64,000 bases of DNA from the IMG/VR virus record IMGVR_UViG_3300021963_000110, positions 4,220-68,219 of that record; one strand, given 5' to 3'. A model generated the notes under the pieces. It was not told where the DNA came from. It saw only the letters and a list, made by a program, of their open reading frames with translations, and did no database searches. Positions 3,732 to 10,097 of this stretch are shown here, in pieces. How positions within the stretch are numbered: the first letter of the stretch is position 1; each line of letters starts with the position of its first letter. The DNA comes from a virus. Made by a program: the position numbers and the translations under genes.

Positions 3732-3854
3732 TTAAAAGTTTTGCATCGTTAATGAAGTACTTGTAGCAAGCACAGGCGTACCTACTGCTGGCAATTGATA
3801 GTTGTCTAAAAAGACAACCCCTCCTAAGATTGTGCAATCATATGAATTTATCAT
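3732..3854 (-). CDS. 40-aa ORF (MINSYDCTILGGVVFLDNYQLPAVGTPVLATSTSLTMQNF), possible truncated fibre-gene stub
   Basis: ATGA overlap with the GIY-YIG stop; fills the intergenic gap; N-terminus resembles those of neighbouring fibre genes. Confidence 0.4.
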   Translation of the reverse strand: MINSYDCTILGGVVFLDNYQLPAVGTPVLATSTSLTMQNF

Positions 3855-4261
3855 CTCTGTGTTTCTTTTAAATTCTTGATATGAGTTTTATGCACTCGGC
3901 ATTGCACTTGCCCATTATAATATGCATCTGATTCTAAAACTCGTCTATCCATTTGTTCTCTTGCCTCTAGATAATTGCATAGTCCTTTGTTAGGACATAT
4001 ATGCAGTATCTCTCTTATAAATTTATCCGCGCCGTGTTTTTCTACATCAGCTTTAACTTCATCAGATGAAGACCAATAATCTCTCCAATCTGACTCTACT
4101 TTTAATCTTTTCTTTTTACCCTTAACTACTTTGGTCTTACGAAACCAGAATAGCTTTTTACCTATATACTTGCGCCCCGTGGCAGTATTAGTAATCAAGT
4201 ACACATAACCATATGCATCCTCAGGGATAACTTCTAATTCTTTATTATCGTATAACCACAT
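3851..4261 (-). CDS. Stand-alone GIY-YIG nuclease
   Basis: GYVYLITN...KYIGKK motif, with downstream conserved Glu (YLEAREQ) and YYN. Confidence 0.8.
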   Translation of the reverse strand: MWLYDNKELEVIPEDAYGYVYLITNTATGRKYIGKKLFWFRKTKVVKGKKKRLKVESDWRDYWSSSDEVKADVEKHGADKFIREILHICPNKGLCNYLEAREQMDRRVLESDAYYNGQVQCRVHKTHIKNLKETQR

Positions 4262-5192: not shown

Positions 5193-5656
5193 ATTTTCTC
5201 CACTTCAATGTTACATTTATTTAAAAATTCTATACCTTCAGTATTTCTATAACTATTTCTATAAAATACTTTTTTAATGCCTGCTATATGTATAAGCTTT
5301 GCACAATCAAAACACGGTGCATGGGTAATATACATTGTAGCACCTAACCCCGATTCATTAGATTGTGCTAGTTTGCCGATAGCATTCATTTCTGCATGAA
5401 TAACCTCGGGCTTTGTCTTTGTACTAATAGTAGTTGTAGGATACTCAGGGCCACCCATGTCAATTATATATGTTGAATGTTCTTCAATTATATCTTCACA
5501 AGTATTATTCCAACCAGCAGGAGTACCGTTGTATCCAATAGATATAATTCTATTATCTTTCTCAACAACAGCACCAACCTGTAATCTTTTAGCAGAGGAT
5601 AATTTAGCATAGGTCTCTGCTACAATTATATGAGCATTATCAAATTTATTCGGCAT
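5189..5656 (-). CDS. cd: dCMP deaminase (start revised to MPNKFDNAH)
   Basis: IISIGYNG; HAEMNAI and PCFDC zinc motifs. Confidence 0.9.
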   Translation of the reverse strand: MPNKFDNAHIIVAETYAKLSSAKRLQVGAVVEKDNRIISIGYNGTPAGWNNTCEDIIEEHSTYIIDMGGPEYPTTTISTKTKPEVIHAEMNAIGKLAQSNESGLGATMYITHAPCFDCAKLIHIAGIKKVFYRNSYRNTEGIEFLNKCNIEVEKI

Positions 5657-5825
5657 TCCATTTTCCTTCGGGGCATTTTGTATTAGGCAATAATGTCTTT
5701 GCCCATATAGAGCAACCACATTTATTACATACCTTAGCACCAATTATAGTAGTAAGGTGTTCACATTCATTACAAATATTTCTTCGTCTTTCGACAAAAG
5801 TTATTACTTTTCTATCTTCACCCAT
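5646..5825 (-). CDS. 59-aa Cys-rich protein, DUF6171-like (RRNICNECEH...CNKCGC...KCPEGKW)
   Basis: Read by hand (below cutoff); six Cys in the same pattern as 21746..21949. Confidence 0.75.
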   Translation of the reverse strand: MGEDRKVITFVERRRNICNECEHLTTIIGAKVCNKCGCSIWAKTLLPNTKCPEGKWNAE

Positions 5826-6016
5826 TTTTTACAATAATATTCTGGACGTACTTTAGCGTCCCAAGTTTTACAATACTTTGTGCCAGGTACATAAGCACCG
5901 CAGTTTGCACAATTCTTTTCACCCTTTGCTTTTTCATAAGCTGGTGGCAATTTTGCTGATATTAACGCACCATCAGCATAGTGTCTCGGTGCGATTACTT
6001 CTTTAAATGATTTCAT
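5804..6016 (-). CDS. 70-aa protein with a HiPIP-like 4-Cys domain (start revised to MKSFKE)
   Basis: NCANCGAY...YCKTW...VRPEYYCKKW matches the order of HiPIP Cys ligands; ATGA overlap with the nrdB stop. Confidence 0.55.
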   Translation of the reverse strand: MKSFKEVIAPRHYADGALISAKLPPAYEKAKGEKNCANCGAYVPGTKYCKTWDAKVRPEYYCKKWVKIEK

Positions 6017-7005
6017 TTTTGTTTTGCCCAAACATCTTCCCAGTTACCTGTGTGCGCGGCTTTTGCGTAATCTGTTGCTCTATTCTCAAAGAAGTTTGTG
6101 TGAATAGGAGCGTTAATCATTTCCTCAACCCAAGGTAGCGGATTTCTTTTAACTTTCATAATACCCTTAAGACCAAGGCTAATAAGGCGACGATCAGTAA
6201 TATAGCGGATGTACTGTTTAACGTCATTAGCGTCCAAATTGTCCATAGGCCCCATAGCGAATGCCAGATCAATAAACCGGTCCTCGAGTAAAACCATTTG
6301 TTCAGCAATTGTATACAGTTGGCCTTTGAGGTCATCGTTCCAAATCTCCGGATTTTCTTGTATATATGTTCTGAATAATTTAATCATGGACTCACAATGC
6401 TGAGTCTCATCTACAATAGACCAAGTAACAATTTGTCCCATGCCCTTCATCTTACCATGACGAGGGAAATTCAACAACATAATAAAAGAACTAAACAACT
6501 GCATACCTTCAGTAAATGCTGAGAAGATAGCAATATGCTTTGCTGTATTTTCTTTTGTAGTGTTTTGTTGAGATATATCCAAGACATAGTCATGCTTAGC
6601 TTTCATTTCCTCATAAGCTAAAAACTCATTATACATTGTCTCGGGCAATCCCAATGTCTCAATCAAATGAGAATATGCTGCAATATGCAGAGCTTCGCGT
6701 GCTGCAAAGCCTAATAGCATCATTCGTATTTCTGGCTGAGGAAAATAAGGAAGGTAGTTATTGACATACCCGCCAGCAACATCAATATCACCTTGTGTAA
6801 AGAATCTAAAGATGTGTGTTAAGAATTGTTTTTCTTCAGTCGTTAACTTCTTTTTCCAATCTTTAACATCTTCTACCATTGGTACTTCAGTATGCAACCA
6901 ATGGGATTGCTCATGCTTCAACCATGCGTCATACGCCCACGGGTAATTAAAGGGTTTGAAAGAATCTCGTGTATCTGTAAGATTCGATTTTGTCTTTTTA
7001 ATCAT
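6013..7005 (-). CDS. nrdB: Class I ribonucleotide reductase beta subunit
   Basis: FFTQGDIDV, EALHIAAY, EGMQLFSSF and DETQH di-iron/tyrosyl motifs; NFFE tail. Confidence 0.95.
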   Translation of the reverse strand: MIKKTKSNLTDTRDSFKPFNYPWAYDAWLKHEQSHWLHTEVPMVEDVKDWKKKLTTEEKQFLTHIFRFFTQGDIDVAGGYVNNYLPYFPQPEIRMMLLGFAAREALHIAAYSHLIETLGLPETMYNEFLAYEEMKAKHDYVLDISQQNTTKENTAKHIAIFSAFTEGMQLFSSFIMLLNFPRHGKMKGMGQIVTWSIVDETQHCESMIKLFRTYIQENPEIWNDDLKGQLYTIAEQMVLLEDRFIDLAFAMGPMDNLDANDVKQYIRYITDRRLISLGLKGIMKVKRNPLPWVEEMINAPIHTNFFENRATDYAKAAHTGNWEDVWAKQK

Positions 7006-7246
7006 TGATGAACTCTTCTACTAAGTTTTTAGCTTTTACGCCTACCATCTTATTTAATACTTGACCATTCTCATCAAGTTTAACAAGTGTCGGCACTCCC
7101 CTGATACCATATTTCATTGCTAACGCTTCATTATCATCTATATCAACAACTTCAATAGGTACATTGGAATCAATGCCTTCCATAATACTTGCCAATGCTT
7201 TACATGGTTGGCACCATGATGCTGTAAATCTTATTACTTTATTCAT
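6998..7246 (-). CDS. trxA: Thioredoxin (start revised to MNKVIRF)
   Basis: WCQPC active site; IRGVPT cis-Pro motif; GGAG RBS. Confidence 0.9.
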   Translation of the reverse strand: MNKVIRFTASWCQPCKALASIMEGIDSNVPIEVVDIDDNEALAMKYGIRGVPTLVKLDENGQVLNKMVGVKAKNLVEEFIND

Positions 7247-7260
7247 TTTTTTATTCTCCG

Positions 7261-7584
7261 TTAAATCGAAAATGAAGAGCCACATCCGCAAGTTGATTGC
7301 GCATTTGGATTTGTTATTTTAAATTCAGATCCCTGTAGATCTTCCTTATAATCTATACTTGCACCTTGCAAATACTGCATACTCATTGCATCAATTAAAA
7401 CTTTACAATCGCCCAAAGGCACCTCGAAGTCATCTTCGTTCATTATTTCATCAAAGGTAAATCCATAACTAAACCCAGAACATCCCCCACCCTGCACAAA
7501 TGTTCTTAGTTTTAAATTAGGATTGCCCTCTTCTGCGAAAAGATCTAATATTTTTGCTTTTGCTGATTCTGTTATTGTTATCAT
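7261..7584 (-). CDS. erpA: A-type Fe-S carrier, ErpA-like (start revised to MITITES)
   Basis: [28 protein letters not shown]...TCGCGSSF. Confidence 0.9.
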
Positions 7585-7907
7585 ACTCGAAAACTTTCTC
7601 CGCAACCACAACGGTCACGTTCATTTGGATTTTTAAAATCAAAGCCTTCATTGAGTCCATTTCGAACCCAATCCATTGTTAGTCCATTTAGATACACATC
7701 ATTTTTTTTATTAACAAGAATAACAAAGTCTTGCTGTCCATAATTAATACAGGTATTATCATAATTATAATTATCAACATATTCTAATGTGTATGCAAGT
7801 CCACTGCAACCAGTAGTCTTCACGCCCAATTGAATTCCAACTCCTTTGCCGCGTTTTTGAAGTAGAGTTTTAATTTTCTCGCGTGCTTTTTCAGTAAGCA
7901 AAATCAT
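7581..7907 (-). CDS. iscA: Fe-S cluster assembly protein IscA
   Basis: [21 protein letters not shown]...[23 protein letters not shown]. Confidence 0.92.
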
Positions 7908-8283
7908 GTTTTTTTCTATAATCTTCTACTGCCGCTTTGATTGCATCTTCGGCAAGTATTGAGCAATGTATCTTTACTGGGGGCAATGCTAGTTCTTCGG
8001 CGATTTCGGAGTTTTTGATTGATCCGGCTTCGTCAAGGGTTTTTCCTTTGACCCATTCTGTAATGAGGCTCGAACTCGCAATAGCCGATCCGCAGCCATA
8101 CGTTTTAAATTTTGCATCTGTAATAATACCTGTATCATTGTCAACCTTTATTTGTAGTTTCATTACATCGCCGCAAGCTGGCGCGCCAACCATACCAGTA
8201 CCAATATCATTATCAGTCTTATCAAAAGATCCGACATTCCTGGGATTTTCATAGTGATCGATTACTTTATTTGAGTATGCCAT
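7891..8283 (-). CDS. iscU: Fe-S cluster scaffold IscU
   Basis: DHYENPRNVG, GAPACGDVM, GCGSAIASSS and LPPVKIHC; all three Cys and the HscA-binding LPPVK motif are intact. Confidence 0.96.
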   Translation of the reverse strand: MAYSNKVIDHYENPRNVGSFDKTDNDIGTGMVGAPACGDVMKLQIKVDNDTGIITDAKFKTYGCGSAIASSSLITEWVKGKTLDEAGSIKNSEIAEELALPPVKIHCSILAEDAIKAAVEDYRKKHDFAY

Positions 8284-8285
8284 GG

Positions 8286-10097
8286 TTAACCTTCACATGC
8301 TAAACAAACGTCTTCGGTTGCTAATGCTTTCAAGTCAATCTCTTCCATGACTTGTCGCTCTATTTTCTTTGATATCTTATCTGCCTTACCAATCTTTTCT
8401 GAACGGCAATAGTATAATGTCTTTAAGCCTTGTTTCCACGCTTGAAAGTGAACAGCATGGATATACTTAATATTACTATCGGGTCTAAAGAATAGATTAA
8501 CAGATTGTGCTTGATCTATATACTGTTGTCTATCTGCAGAATGTTGAACAACCCAACGCTGGTCAATTTCCATAGATGTTTTAAATACTTCTTTATCCCA
8601 ATCAGACAACCAAGTTAAATGCTGTACCGATCCATCATTAGCAATAATTGAAGACCAGATATCATTGTAGTCATTTTGTGATACTGTACCACTGTCACTT
8701 GAAAGATGCTTTTCAATAACTCTATTTAACCATTTGTTTTTGTTGAGCATTGAACCCGATAAAGTATCTTGTCTATATGCGTTCGCACGAAGGGGCTCAA
8801 TAGAAGGGGAAGTATTACCCATAATGATAGAAGAAGAAGCGTTTGGAGCAATAGCAAGCATATGAGAGAAGCGGCGTCCAGTACCTGCCGCATCGGGTGC
8901 TTCGCCTCTTTCGGTACCCAATTGAATATTTGCATTATCTAGTTCCTTGCGAATGTGACCGAATATCTTATGGTTCAATCCTGTTGCTGATGCCGATTCC
9001 CATGGGATGCTTTTCTTTTGTAAAAGAGCATGCCAACCGAGAGCACCAATACCAATAGACCGTTCGCGAATAGCAGAATATCGTGCGCGTGATATGCTAT
9101 CAGGAGCATTATCAATGAAATACTGCAAGACGTTATCGAGCATCTCTGCAACGTCCCGAAGAAAAAGTCTGTCATCTTTCCAATCATCGTAATACTCCAA
9201 GTTCAAAGAGGATAAGCAACATACCGCAGTACGATCTTTATCCGTAGGTAAAATAATTTCACTGCACAAATTAGATTGTTTAATACTTAGTCCCAGTTTC
9301 TTTTGGAACTCAGGCATTGCTCTATTGCTACTATCAATAAAATGTAGATAGGGCTCACCTGTTTGCATACGCATATCTAAAATACGTTGCCATAATTCTC
9401 TTGCTGACACTTTATCTCTAACTTCGCCATTGTGAGGATCTTTTAATTCCCATGTGTCATCCATCTCGGGATCAATCATTGCACGTTCAATTAAATGCAT
9501 AAAATCATCAGTGATATTAATACCGTGATGCAAATTCAAACAACGCATATTGGGATCGCCTGTTGGCTTTCTCATCTCTAGAAAAATAAGAATGTCCGGA
9601 TGAGAAATATCAAGATAAGCGGCATAGCTACCACGACGAGTCCTACCTTGTCTATAAGCGAGAGATGATGCGTCATATGTGCGAAGGTGGGGCATGACTC
9701 CAACCGATTTATCATCCGATGAACGTATTCCGATACCAATTCCAACTCCTCCACCCATCATGGATAACCAATTTACTTCGGCCAGACAATCGACCAAACC
9801 TTCTGCACTATCATGTAGATAAGGTAAAAAACATGATATAGGAAGGCCACGCTTACTACGCCCAAAGCTGAGAATAGGAGTAGAATAAGACAACCAATGT
9901 CTACTGCTGTACTCATAAAGTCTTTGCGAATGTTCTCGATTTGACCCGAACGTCTTGGAAACATATGCGAACCTTTCTTGCGGTGAGACCTCATCCTCCT
10001 TCATATAGCTTTCTTTTAATCTTTTAATACCTAGCTCGTCAAATAGACTATCTCTAGAATAGTCGACATTAATCCCATGCACAATTTCTTGCGTCAT
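8286..10097 (-). CDS. nrdA: Class I ribonucleotide reductase alpha subunit, short form without an ATP cone
   Basis: PISCF, SNLCSEI, IAPNASSS, LKTLYY and C-terminal CLACEG. Confidence 0.95.
   Translation of the reverse strand: MTQEIVHGINVDYSRDSLFDELGIKRLKESYMKEDEVSPQERFAYVSKTFGSNREHSQRLYEYSSRHWLSYSTPILSFGRSKRGLPISCFLPYLHDSAEGLVDCLAEVNWLSMMGGGVGIGIGIRSSDDKSVGVMPHLRTYDASSLAYRQGRTRRGSYAAYLDISHPDILIFLEMRKPTGDPNMRCLNLHHGINITDDFMHLIERAMIDPEMDDTWELKDPHNGEVRDKVSARELWQRILDMRMQTGEPYLHFIDSSNRAMPEFQKKLGLSIKQSNLCSEIILPTDKDRTAVCCLSSLNLEYYDDWKDDRLFLRDVAEMLDNVLQYFIDNAPDSISRARYSAIRERSIGIGALGWHALLQKKSIPWESASATGLNHKIFGHIRKELDNANIQLGTERGEAPDAAGTGRRFSHMLAIAPNASSSIIMGNTSPSIEPLRANAYRQDTLSGSMLNKNKWLNRVIEKHLSSDSGTVSQNDYNDIWSSIIANDGSVQHLTWLSDWDKEVFKTSMEIDQRWVVQHSADRQQYIDQAQSVNLFFRPDSNIKYIHAVHFQAWKQGLKTLYYCRSEKIGKADKISKKIERQVMEEIDLKALATEDVCLACEG

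Follow-up and report, generated by a model that had tools for sequence, protein, structure and literature searches.

Why should a bacteriophage carry genes for the assembly of iron–sulfur (Fe-S) clusters between the two genes of its ribonucleotide reductase (RNR)? This question is raised by a 64,000-nt stretch of DNA (positions 4,220 to 68,219 of the IMG/VR virus record IMGVR_UViG_3300021963_000110; hereafter, the window), in which the scaffold gene iscU, the A-type carrier genes iscA and erpA, and a thioredoxin gene (trx) stand between nrdA and nrdB. The initial annotation took these four genes for an Fe-S module that relies on host IscS and HscA and redirects iron or clusters toward NrdB metallation or toward Fe-S clients of the phage or the host. 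We conclude that the three Fe-S genes probably form an optional auxiliary cassette for Fe-S cluster biogenesis in a freshwater phage, one that depends on the host machinery and serves the general supply of clusters.

The closest relatives of the locus were collected in a survey of 80 viral loci (L004 and L164–L242; NrdA 79–96% identical), which were the best 80 of at least 598 stretches. The seven nearest of them (L164–L170; NrdA 95–96%) have the order nrdA-trx-nrdB with the Fe-S genes absent, and the NrdB proteins of the nearest cassette-less relatives are 95–98% identical to that of the window. The DNA alignment with L164 and L166 revealed the empty form of the site, in which trx starts a few bases past the nrdA stop codon. 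In the filled form, the nrdA stop and the trx start enclose exactly iscU-iscA-erpA, with no flanking repeat visible. Within this survey, the exact gene order of the window was found in L004 only. The three Fe-S genes are a clean optional cassette. As trx is present in the cassette-less relatives too, it is a resident of the RNR operon standing outside the module to which it had been assigned, and its product is the probable reductant of RNR.

The same two forms were seen in the sequencing runs. Contig joints leading from position 7248 or 7249 to 8286 occurred in runs X1 and X17, and a joint from 7236 to 8286 occurred in run X3. These joints, which skip 1,036–1,049 nt, were present in three of the four runs compared, beside contigs of the filled form, so both forms coexist in the samples. 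Since the joints were detected at a likeness threshold of 90%, they belong to relatives and not to the genome of the window.

Sequence comparison indicates that the region is mosaic, as recombination within the phage population would give. Between the window and L004, the synonymous divergence (dS) is 0.06–0.30 in the cassette, 0.46 in nrdA, and 0.79 in nrdB, and iscA and erpA of the two are 99% identical. Meanwhile, the Trx of the window has 91% amino acid identity to that of the cassette-less L164 and 74% to that of the cassette-bearing L004. A gene for a SegE-like GIY-YIG homing endonuclease (3851–4261, minus strand; PF19835, E 1.3e-37) lies 1.7 kb beyond nrdB, and this enzyme may promote the local mosaicism.

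The gene calls were made from open reading frames (ORFs) combined with family scans (Pfam, NCBIfam equivalog and subfamily models, PHROG), and the features are listed in Table 1. Together with the junctions, they confirmed the nrdA-iscU-iscA-erpA-trx-nrdB order and the overlapping or abutting codons that had been proposed. Every gene of this string is carried by the minus strand and the packing is tight. The iscU ATG follows the nrdA stop after 2 nt, the end of iscU overlaps the start of iscA by 17 nt, the iscA stop and the erpA start have an ATGA in common, a 14-nt spacer containing GGAG separates the erpA stop from the trx ATG, and trx overlaps nrdB by 8 nt. The string runs on past nrdB with a short ORF whose product resembles high-potential iron–sulfur proteins (HiPIPs), followed by a 59-aa Cys-rich ORF with the motif CxxC...CxxCxC...C. 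The latter was found after nrdB or after the HiPIP-like gene at 14 loci (the window, L004, L164–L170, L172, L174, L181, L186, and L188).

Table 1. Features of the RNR locus and its optional Fe-S cassette (positions in the window)
Feature	Position	Strand	Evidence or remarks
nrdA, RNR alpha subunit, 603 aa, without ATP-cone	8286-10097	-	NF006577 743 bits (cut-off 620)
iscU, Fe-S scaffold, 130 aa	7891-8283	-	TIGR01999 225.4 bits (cut-off 192.4); NifU_N PF01592 187 bits
iscA-type, A-type carrier, 108 aa	7581-7907	-	TIGR00049 97.9 bits (cut-off 58.8)
erpA-type, A-type carrier, 107 aa	7261-7584	-	NF010147 163 bits (cut-off 117); ATG at 7584
trx, small thioredoxin, 82 aa, WCQPC	6998-7246	-	Pfam Thioredoxin PF00085 59 bits (gathering 23.5); phrog_22
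nrdB, RNR beta subunit, 330 aa	6013-7005	-	NF007186 443 bits (cut-off 237)
HiPIP-like four-Cys ORF, 70 aa	5804-6016	-	Start shares ATGA with nrdB stop
Cys-rich ORF, 59 aa, DUF6171-like	5646-5825	-	PF19668 E 1.1e-4 (under cut-off); phrog_13558 E 2.6e-11
Optional cassette iscU-iscA-erpA, ~1,037 bp	7250-8285		Limits from comparison with the empty nrdA-stop/trx-start site in L164 and L166

The motif check upheld the claim of intact Cys ligands and LPPVK. The IscU of the window, assigned to phrog_8429 (NifU-like auxiliary metabolic gene), keeps C-G-D, GCGS, and LPPVKxHC. We take the three Cys, the Asp, and the His of these motifs to be the cluster ligands and LPPVK to be the HscA-docking motif. Both carriers have GC[SAG]G and the C-terminal CxC. 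The IscA-type protein, which keeps its three Cys, passed the subfamily model TIGR00049 and scored under the TIGR02011 equivalog cut-off (127.7 vs 150.6 bits), and Trx likewise scored under the TrxA equivalog cut-offs. The gene overlaps alone speak for co-transcription, and the cassette is probably co-transcribed with the RNR genes and translationally coupled. A promoter and terminator consensus scan of the minus strand revealed no convincing internal site within nrdA..nrdB; the promoter-like sites in the scan were fewer than in the shuffles (31 vs 40.3). No tRNA genes were found in the window.

The position of the cassette can be explained in two ways. Were the cassette dedicated to RNR, it would build or maintain the metallo-radical cofactor of NrdB: ErpA and IscA would mature the HiPIP-like [4Fe-4S] protein, which would donate an electron for the assembly or re-activation of NrdB, or else the carriers would deliver iron directly. 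We consider this unlikely, first of all because the nearest relatives run the same RNR with no cassette. The gap between nrdA and nrdB is also promiscuous. Across 76 loci with both RNR genes it ranges from 3 to 2,935 nt (below 30 nt in 7 loci, 30–400 nt in 12, 400–1,200 nt in 25, and above 1,200 nt in 32), and its unrelated cargo includes a GATase-like protein, a UDP-galactopyranose mutase, a staphylococcal-nuclease homologue, a metallophosphatase, a fatty-acid desaturase, an Asp/Arg-hydroxylase-like protein, and unknowns.

Within the RNR lineage of the window, Fe-S genes stand at or near RNR in 25 of the 80 loci, which favors a link to RNR; 55 have none, counting L218, which ends inside an iscU-like start. 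Their arrangement varies. The three-gene set lies between nrdA and nrdB in three loci (L004, L174, and L192) in addition to the window, iscU with erpA lies there in one, and one more locus has iscU at a truncated contig end. In ten loci iscU and erpA come just after nrdB, while iscA alone is found approximately 3 kb downstream in eight and erpA alone downstream in two. Among the near-complete relatives, a carrier gene lies far from RNR in G311 (at its terminal repeat) and G312, which counts against a role confined to RNR, and no carrier gene is present in G310, G313, and G314. In G311 (the record of L231), a complete genome of 159.7 kb, the A-type carrier gene lies across the direct terminal repeat and the RNR locus is without Fe-S genes.

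The surroundings of viral iscU were examined in a second survey, for which the best 80 loci of at least 598 stretches, encoding 87–97% identical proteins, were taken and their neighbors clustered; these 80 loci are phylogenetically non-independent and many are cut by contig ends. An A-type carrier gene follows iscU in most of them. An RNR gene was found within 3.5 kb on the same strand in 23 of the loci and none within that distance in 57. In 14 loci, iscU lies between nrdA and nrdB, as would be expected of genes serving RNR. Three of these (L004, L060, and L079) have the RNR type of the window, and the other 11 have a second type, in which NrdA is 780 aa long with an ATP-cone and NrdB is 366 aa long. 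Where tblastn saw it, the NrdA of the second type was only 22–25% identical to that of the window. Linkage of Fe-S genes with RNR recurs in two class I RNR operons that are unrelated to each other, but it is not the rule. Other frequent neighbors of iscU are genes for a glutaredoxin (19 loci), a PD-(D/E)XK nuclease (24), and UvdE (22). A gene for an Fe/Mn superoxide dismutase (SOD) stands directly upstream of iscU in 22 loci (e.g., L008:5416-5985), and DAHP synthase - unknown - WYL_2 - UvdE - SOD - iscU - iscA is a frequent string.

The synteny of the nrdA-nrdB intervals, which had been proposed as a check, points both ways: the insertion of Fe-S genes recurs in two RNR types, but the gap takes unrelated cargo and most iscU genes are elsewhere. 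We conclude that the position in the RNR operon is for the most part due to a hyperplastic cargo slot with early expression, service to NrdB being unproven. The redirection of iron or clusters toward NrdB metallation, as initially suggested, is not supported, given the RNR kept by the nearest relatives with no cassette, the promiscuous gap, and the predominance of iscU genes located off RNR.

The metallation proposal had also presumed a class Ia enzyme with a di-iron cofactor. The NrdA of the window matches only Ribonuc_red_lgC and lgN in Pfam, with no ATP-cone, and it scored 97.9 bits against the class 1a alpha model NF006578, for which the cut-off is 813. Among solved structures, 6dqw and 6dqx match it best (E 3e-100 and 1e-90). 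The protein is short, without an ATP-cone, and closest to class Id alpha structures; in the available text of PMC8350387, 6DQX is the NrdA of Actinobacillus ureae and belongs to class Id. The best solved relative of NrdB is 9dws (E 4e-101), a literature search for which returned no relevant paper. It is followed by class Ic structures (~1e-43) and the class Id 6cwo (1e-33), and the class Ia NrdB of E. coli reaches only E ~4e-12. The class Ic structures are Chlamydia proteins.

In an alignment of NrdB with 26 of the 76-plus available sequences, picked for spread, the residues D73, E104, H107, Y111, E166, E200, and H203 were invariant in the 26 relatives. The Asp/Glu/His/Glu/Glu/His ligands and the radical Tyr are present, a set that is not confined to class Ia. 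According to the accessible part of PMC6754362, the class Id NrdBi has Glu as the first ligand and Trp seven residues on, and NrdBk, the sister of NrdBi stated there to be uncharacterised, has Asp and Tyr at those positions. With D73 and Y80 (+7), the NrdB of the window fits the NrdBk signature and not the Glu and Trp of NrdBi. The absent ATP-cone, the ranking of structures, and D73/Y80 leave the class Ia di-iron premise unproven. For the NrdB subclass in question, no characterised cofactor is given in the available text of PMC6754362, a further point against a cassette devoted to it.

The route through an Fe-S electron donor has a parallel. In E. coli, the [2Fe-2S] ferredoxin YfaE is encoded downstream of nrdB (nrdAB-yfaE) and maintains the NrdB cofactor. 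A gene for a small Fe-S-type protein likewise comes immediately after nrdB in the window. However, the phage protein is HiPIP-like and would be of the [4Fe-4S] type, with a high potential expected, instead of a plant-type ferredoxin, and the RNR of the window is of another subclass.

When the product of the 70-aa ORF was compared with the PDB by phmmer, two HiPIPs led (E 0.032 and 0.36), with four Cys aligned in the better match. It shares with HiPIP and PioC the spacing C-x2-C-x9-C-x12-C and the aromatics beside the last Cys. It differs from them in a conserved N-terminal Y-x-D-G..LP..Y and in the phage RNR-operon context, and no signal peptide was obvious by eye, no predictor having been used. 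A HMMER search of 1.84 billion representatives yielded 105 relatives at E<=1e-3. The four Cys are invariant in all 43 sequences of an alignment of the window protein with 42 short members, and the family profile gave 13 PDB matches at E<=1, of which 10 were HiPIP or PioC (best 4.9e-4). The family also includes large repeat proteins, such as P0004 of 1,435 aa with 17 matched stretches. The window protein had no Pfam match and so fell short of the gathering score of HIPIP PF01355; weak HIPIP matches were obtained for 7 of the 43 family members (best E 0.0014). Its AlphaFold2 model has a predicted local distance difference test (pLDDT) score of 85, and ranks 1–16 listed by Foldseek were HiPIP or PioC (best E 0.018; template modelling (TM) score 0.50–0.55). 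We regard the 70-aa protein as HiPIP-like, though not a proven HiPIP, and as a candidate [4Fe-4S] client.

The distribution of the HiPIP-like gene bears on the RNR-dedicated role from both sides. Among 54 viral loci, the gene stands directly after nrdB in 36, near nrdB in 4, directly after erpA in 2, and with no RNR nearby in 12. The first group agrees with such a role and the last one does not. Of the loci with at least 3 kb upstream, 12 of 30 carry Fe-S genes and 18 have none, including six in which the gene accompanies nrdB with no Fe-S genes. It is present at three of the four loci with the three-gene set (the window, L004, and L174, but not L192). Meanwhile, the HiPIP-like profile matched in 4 of 159 loci (L004, L164, L174, and L186) and in just one of the 80 iscU loci, so the HiPIP-like gene is not the general reason for phage iscU. 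At L329:597-1465 and L330:1432-2300, iscA, erpA, and the HiPIP-like gene adjoin with no nrdB, with 7 nt from the erpA end to the HiPIP-like match. A predicted complex of NrdB with the HiPIP-like protein scored 0.00, a value obtained without controls that speaks neither for nor against binding.

If not NrdB, other proteins would receive the clusters. The initial annotation had suggested that radical S-adenosylmethionine (SAM) and Cas4-type clients be sought in the rest of the genome. The accessible text of Nishimura 2017 (PMC5332604) connects the Fe-S scaffolds of viruses with radical-SAM and Cas4 genes carried by viruses. Radical_SAM matches were abundant in the iscU-bearing records, with 19 in G308 (L042; 347 kb with terminal repeats), 14 in G309 (L068; 342 kb), 6 in G315 (the record of L323; 222 kb, rated 100% complete, with the order nrdA-iscU-iscA-x-erpA-nrdB-HiPIP-like), and 9 in the partial G307 (L066; 175 kb). 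Where iscU is missing from the RNR locus, the near-complete relatives had one (G310) and none (G311). The abundance in iscU-bearing genomes agrees with the link proposed in the consulted part of Nishimura 2017 (PMC5332604). Cas4 family searches of five records gave no match. G308, G309, and G315 are complete or near-complete, and the 35%-complete record of the window yielded no radical-SAM or Cas4-type client. The jumbo phage records G308 and G309 carry iscU-iscA, and five Radical_SAM-like ORFs, two of them over the Pfam cut-off, are clustered near one end of the genome in G315 (C1:300-12700).

The next question is where the cassette came from. The best 80 bacterial IscU proteins (83–89% identical) belong to freshwater Comamonadaceae and other Burkholderiales (e.g., Hydrogenophaga, Limnohabitans, Rhodoferax, and Hylemonella). 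All 80 of their iscU genes lie in iscR-iscS-iscU-iscA-hscB-hscA-fdx operons, some truncated by contig ends. No erpA was found within 5 kb of isc at these 80 loci. In five of five Comamonadaceae-type genomes, the ErpA protein is 68–72% identical and its gene is separated from isc by more than 1 Mb or sits on a different contig; the best ErpA match in a class-wide sample is 69%. The assertion that erpA is normally unlinked from isc is therefore borne out in the likely donor clade. Like this bacterial operon, the phage string has the iscU-iscA order, the ligands, and LPPVK. It differs in lacking the regulator, desulfurase, chaperones, and ferredoxin, in having erpA in the same string, in its GC content (0.34–0.40 vs ~0.58–0.60), and in its nucleotide-metabolism surroundings. 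The host is probably a Comamonadaceae/Burkholderiales bacterium.

A carrier tree was built of 116 rows, thinned from 165 IscA-type (90% identity) and 62 ErpA-type (95%) sequences. The IscA and ErpA clades split at a branch value of 100 and the carriers of the window fall one in each, in keeping with the claim of a scaffold with two carriers, which prove to be of different A-type classes, class II for IscA and class I for ErpA. A single branch (SH-aLRT 90) sets off all 42 phage IscA rows, the window included, within the Burkholderiales IscA, the neighbor of the group being one long-branched Acinetobacter row. Meanwhile, the phage ErpA rows lack resolution at the base of the ErpA clade. The IscU tree comprised 72 rows from 175 sequences thinned at 96% (L003 and the duplicates L248–L252 were dropped). 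It had no supported branches and did not reject a single phage clade (p-AU 0.79), so it tells nothing about the number of captures beyond the survival of one phage clade in this test. The trees thus answer the question of single or separate captures in part: one group for phage IscA, one clade not rejected for IscU, and no resolution for ErpA. As iscU and iscA are neighbors in the host isc operon, their joint entry is most likely. The simplest history is one capture of adjoining iscU-iscA, a separate capture of erpA, and subsequent spread or reshuffling among phages.

The captured genes are under strong purifying selection. The ratio of nonsynonymous to synonymous divergence (dN/dS) was 0.02–0.18 for the three cassette genes in six pairwise comparisons, which speaks against the relaxed selection raised as an objection. 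Of the phage copies, all 94 IscU, all 81 IscA-type, and 26 of 28 ErpA-type proteins retain the ligand motifs.

A tblastn search at E<=1e-5 for the partner genes iscS, hscB, hscA, and fdx yielded no homologues in the window, in line with the initial claim, and the whole 68-kb record has no Aminotran_5 match. At the same threshold, the viral loci L003–L083 and L164–L242 had no iscS, hscBA, or fdx, bar one weak match at L035. This sole match (L035:4906-5550) is a 25%-identical IscS-like stretch just upstream of iscU. The Aminotran_5 matches in G309 (weak, 24.5 bits, over the cut-off) and G308 (below the cut-off) were not read as IscS. Since the viral loci lack these genes, we infer that the phage proteins depend on the host desulfurase and chaperones, namely on host IscS and HscBA, and the reliance on the host that had been proposed is a fair reading.

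The same dependence could serve the manipulation of the host. The phage scaffold and carriers would then divert the sulfur flux of IscS or the cluster pool, or alter the loading of IscR, and host iron/Fe-S homeostasis or oxidative-stress handling would be reprogrammed, rather than particular clients supplied. With iscR missing as well as iscS, hscBA, and fdx, the phage proteins must use the host machinery, and the SOD gene directly upstream of iscU in 22 of the 80 loci points to a redox-stress theme. However, all the ligand and chaperone-docking motifs are kept, as in working proteins and not in decoys, the sequence data single out neither IscR nor IscS as a target, and the explanation overlaps with general cluster supply. 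We hold this explanation to be quite improbable.

It should be noted that some phage records with iscU are bacterial isc operons, which gives some reason to ask whether the locus arose from chimeric assembly or is bacterial DNA that was binned with viruses. For example, CAKLQH020000011.1 (L002), filed under 'Acinetobacter phage MD-2021a', has a full bacterial isc operon amid ppiD, hupB, and mfd and looks like bacterial DNA filed as phage. For the window, such an artefact is hardly conceivable. The window makes up most of a virus record of 68,219 bp (CheckV completeness 35%) with baseplate, tail-fibre, and primase genes, which bears out the phage nature of the locus, and phage genes flank the cassette on both sides with spacers of 2 and 14 nt. 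The gene order of the window recurs in contigs of other metagenomes (L004/L287, L288, and L291). The stretch or a part of it was contained in 20 of 24 public runs, four runs from four studies held 75–81% of the sampled words, and all 30 bins were covered in two DNA runs of different studies, in which pieces of 404 and 413 nt span the iscA/iscU overlap with 0 differences. These data argue against the chimeric contig that had been named as a possible refutation. The GC content of the cassette is 0.34–0.40, with 0.20–0.32 at third codon positions (GC3), and is phage-like (phage 0.38; median of bacterial iscU 0.58, n=80), and the canonical operon partners are absent. The best explanation is an uncultured freshwater myovirus-like phage with a full genome of approximately 160–220 kb.

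Isolated phages offer few counterparts. Megablast of the locus against GenBank phages gave no match. A protein search gave 17 records, among which Phage C48C1 (75% identical, not beside an RNR) was the only clear isolate or complete phage genome with IscU, and most of the other records were SufU-type (29–35% identical), short or unannotated entries. No isolate-phage NrdA in the collection was more than 61% identical; the best named isolate was an Alcaligenes phage (60%), and pelagiphages reached up to 54%.

Contigs from the RNA-library run X15 match the HiPIP-like gene with the nrdB end (1 difference in 270 nt), nrdB (0/151), erpA (3/158), and nrdA (0/151). Parts of the stretch had no RNA-contig cover in X15 and X17, a gap that carries no weight, and the RNA-library runs X16 and X18–X20 held small shares of the sampled words. 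In the accessible text of PMC9611531, a viral-fraction metatranscriptome from Lake Baikal has HesB/IscA/SufA-family proteins among the most numerous in the cofactor category.

Several points weigh against a cassette for general cluster supply. That Fe-S genes recur in or next to the operons of two RNR types may signify something beyond a cargo slot. The radical-SAM contrast comes from five non-independent genomes, and radical-SAM and Cas4-type clients are absent from the record of the window, which is only 35% complete. The host assignment is based solely on protein similarity. Finally, the X15 contigs are not direct evidence of transcription, as DNA carry-over is possible and contigs cannot prove a transcript.

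With these points taken into account, we still favor the optional cassette for general cluster supply, which would work as follows. IscU and the IscA-type carrier would have entered the phage pool together from a host isc operon, the ErpA-type carrier being added separately. Placed in an early nucleotide-metabolism operon, the cassette would be expressed along with the RNR genes by probable co-transcription and translational coupling. Host IscS, with host ferredoxin and HscBA, would load [2Fe-2S] onto the phage IscU, and the two carriers would hand [2Fe-2S] or [4Fe-4S] clusters to apo-proteins. The supply of Fe-S clusters would thereby be raised or protected during infection. The likely clients would be phage Fe-S enzymes (radical-SAM), host respiratory enzymes and, in the lineage of the window, possibly the HiPIP-like protein.

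The cassette genes have the attributes of auxiliary metabolic genes, being host-like metabolic genes in a bona fide phage genome with phage-gene flanks, and phage iscU, A-type carrier, and erpA genes have already been published as such. In the available text of Nishimura 2017 (PMC5332604), a carrier is reported in 14 and IscU in 6 of 16 marine viral genomes. The accessible parts of two further papers describe iscU and erpA in HMO-2011-type phages (PMC9038755) and iscU/nifU and erpA in lake viruses (PMC13760526). As far as the accessible texts of these three papers go, the published genes and ours share an iscU/A-type carrier set without iscS/hscBA, a patchy presence among close relatives, co-occurring virus-encoded radical-SAM genes, and a proteobacterial origin. 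Compared with the marine T4-like viruses in the accessible text of PMC5332604, the present locus has a three-gene cassette inside a class I RNR operon; it also differs from the published cases, as described there, in its freshwater phages, its Burkholderiales-like donors, and one exact presence/absence site. The available main texts of PMC5332604, PMC9038755, and PMC13760526 make no mention of a linkage between Fe-S genes and RNR, and full-text searches found no paper on it; supplements were outside the scope. An RNR phylogeny paper (eLife/bioRxiv) names IscU only in connection with an IscU-fold-like C-terminal domain of class II RNRs, which is irrelevant here. Novelty seems to lie in the repeated location of Fe-S genes within or next to class I RNR operons of two unrelated types.

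Phage Fe-S genes are widely listed as auxiliary, and their clients are only proposed in the accessible texts of PMC5332604, PMC9038755, and PMC13760526. Since the same waters hold near-identical phages that either have or lack the cassette, these phages provide a natural experiment on its fitness effect, for instance under iron limitation or oxidative stress. The RNR linkage, together with the nrdB-coupled HiPIP-like gene, leads to the hypothesis that an Fe-S protein serves the NrdBk-like RNR subclass. In its boldest form, which strikes us as very doubtful, freshwater phages would have recruited Fe-S genes repeatedly into class I RNR operons, with RNR cofactor assembly or maintenance running through phage Fe-S proteins. 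If it were true, a cytosolic HiPIP-like [4Fe-4S] carrier, matured by phage ErpA/IscA and translated with NrdB, would amount to a novel accessory system of RNR and take the role of YfaE or NrdI for the NrdBk-like subclass. If the link is merely positional, the locus documents a hyperplastic cargo slot in a large family of uncultured freshwater phages.

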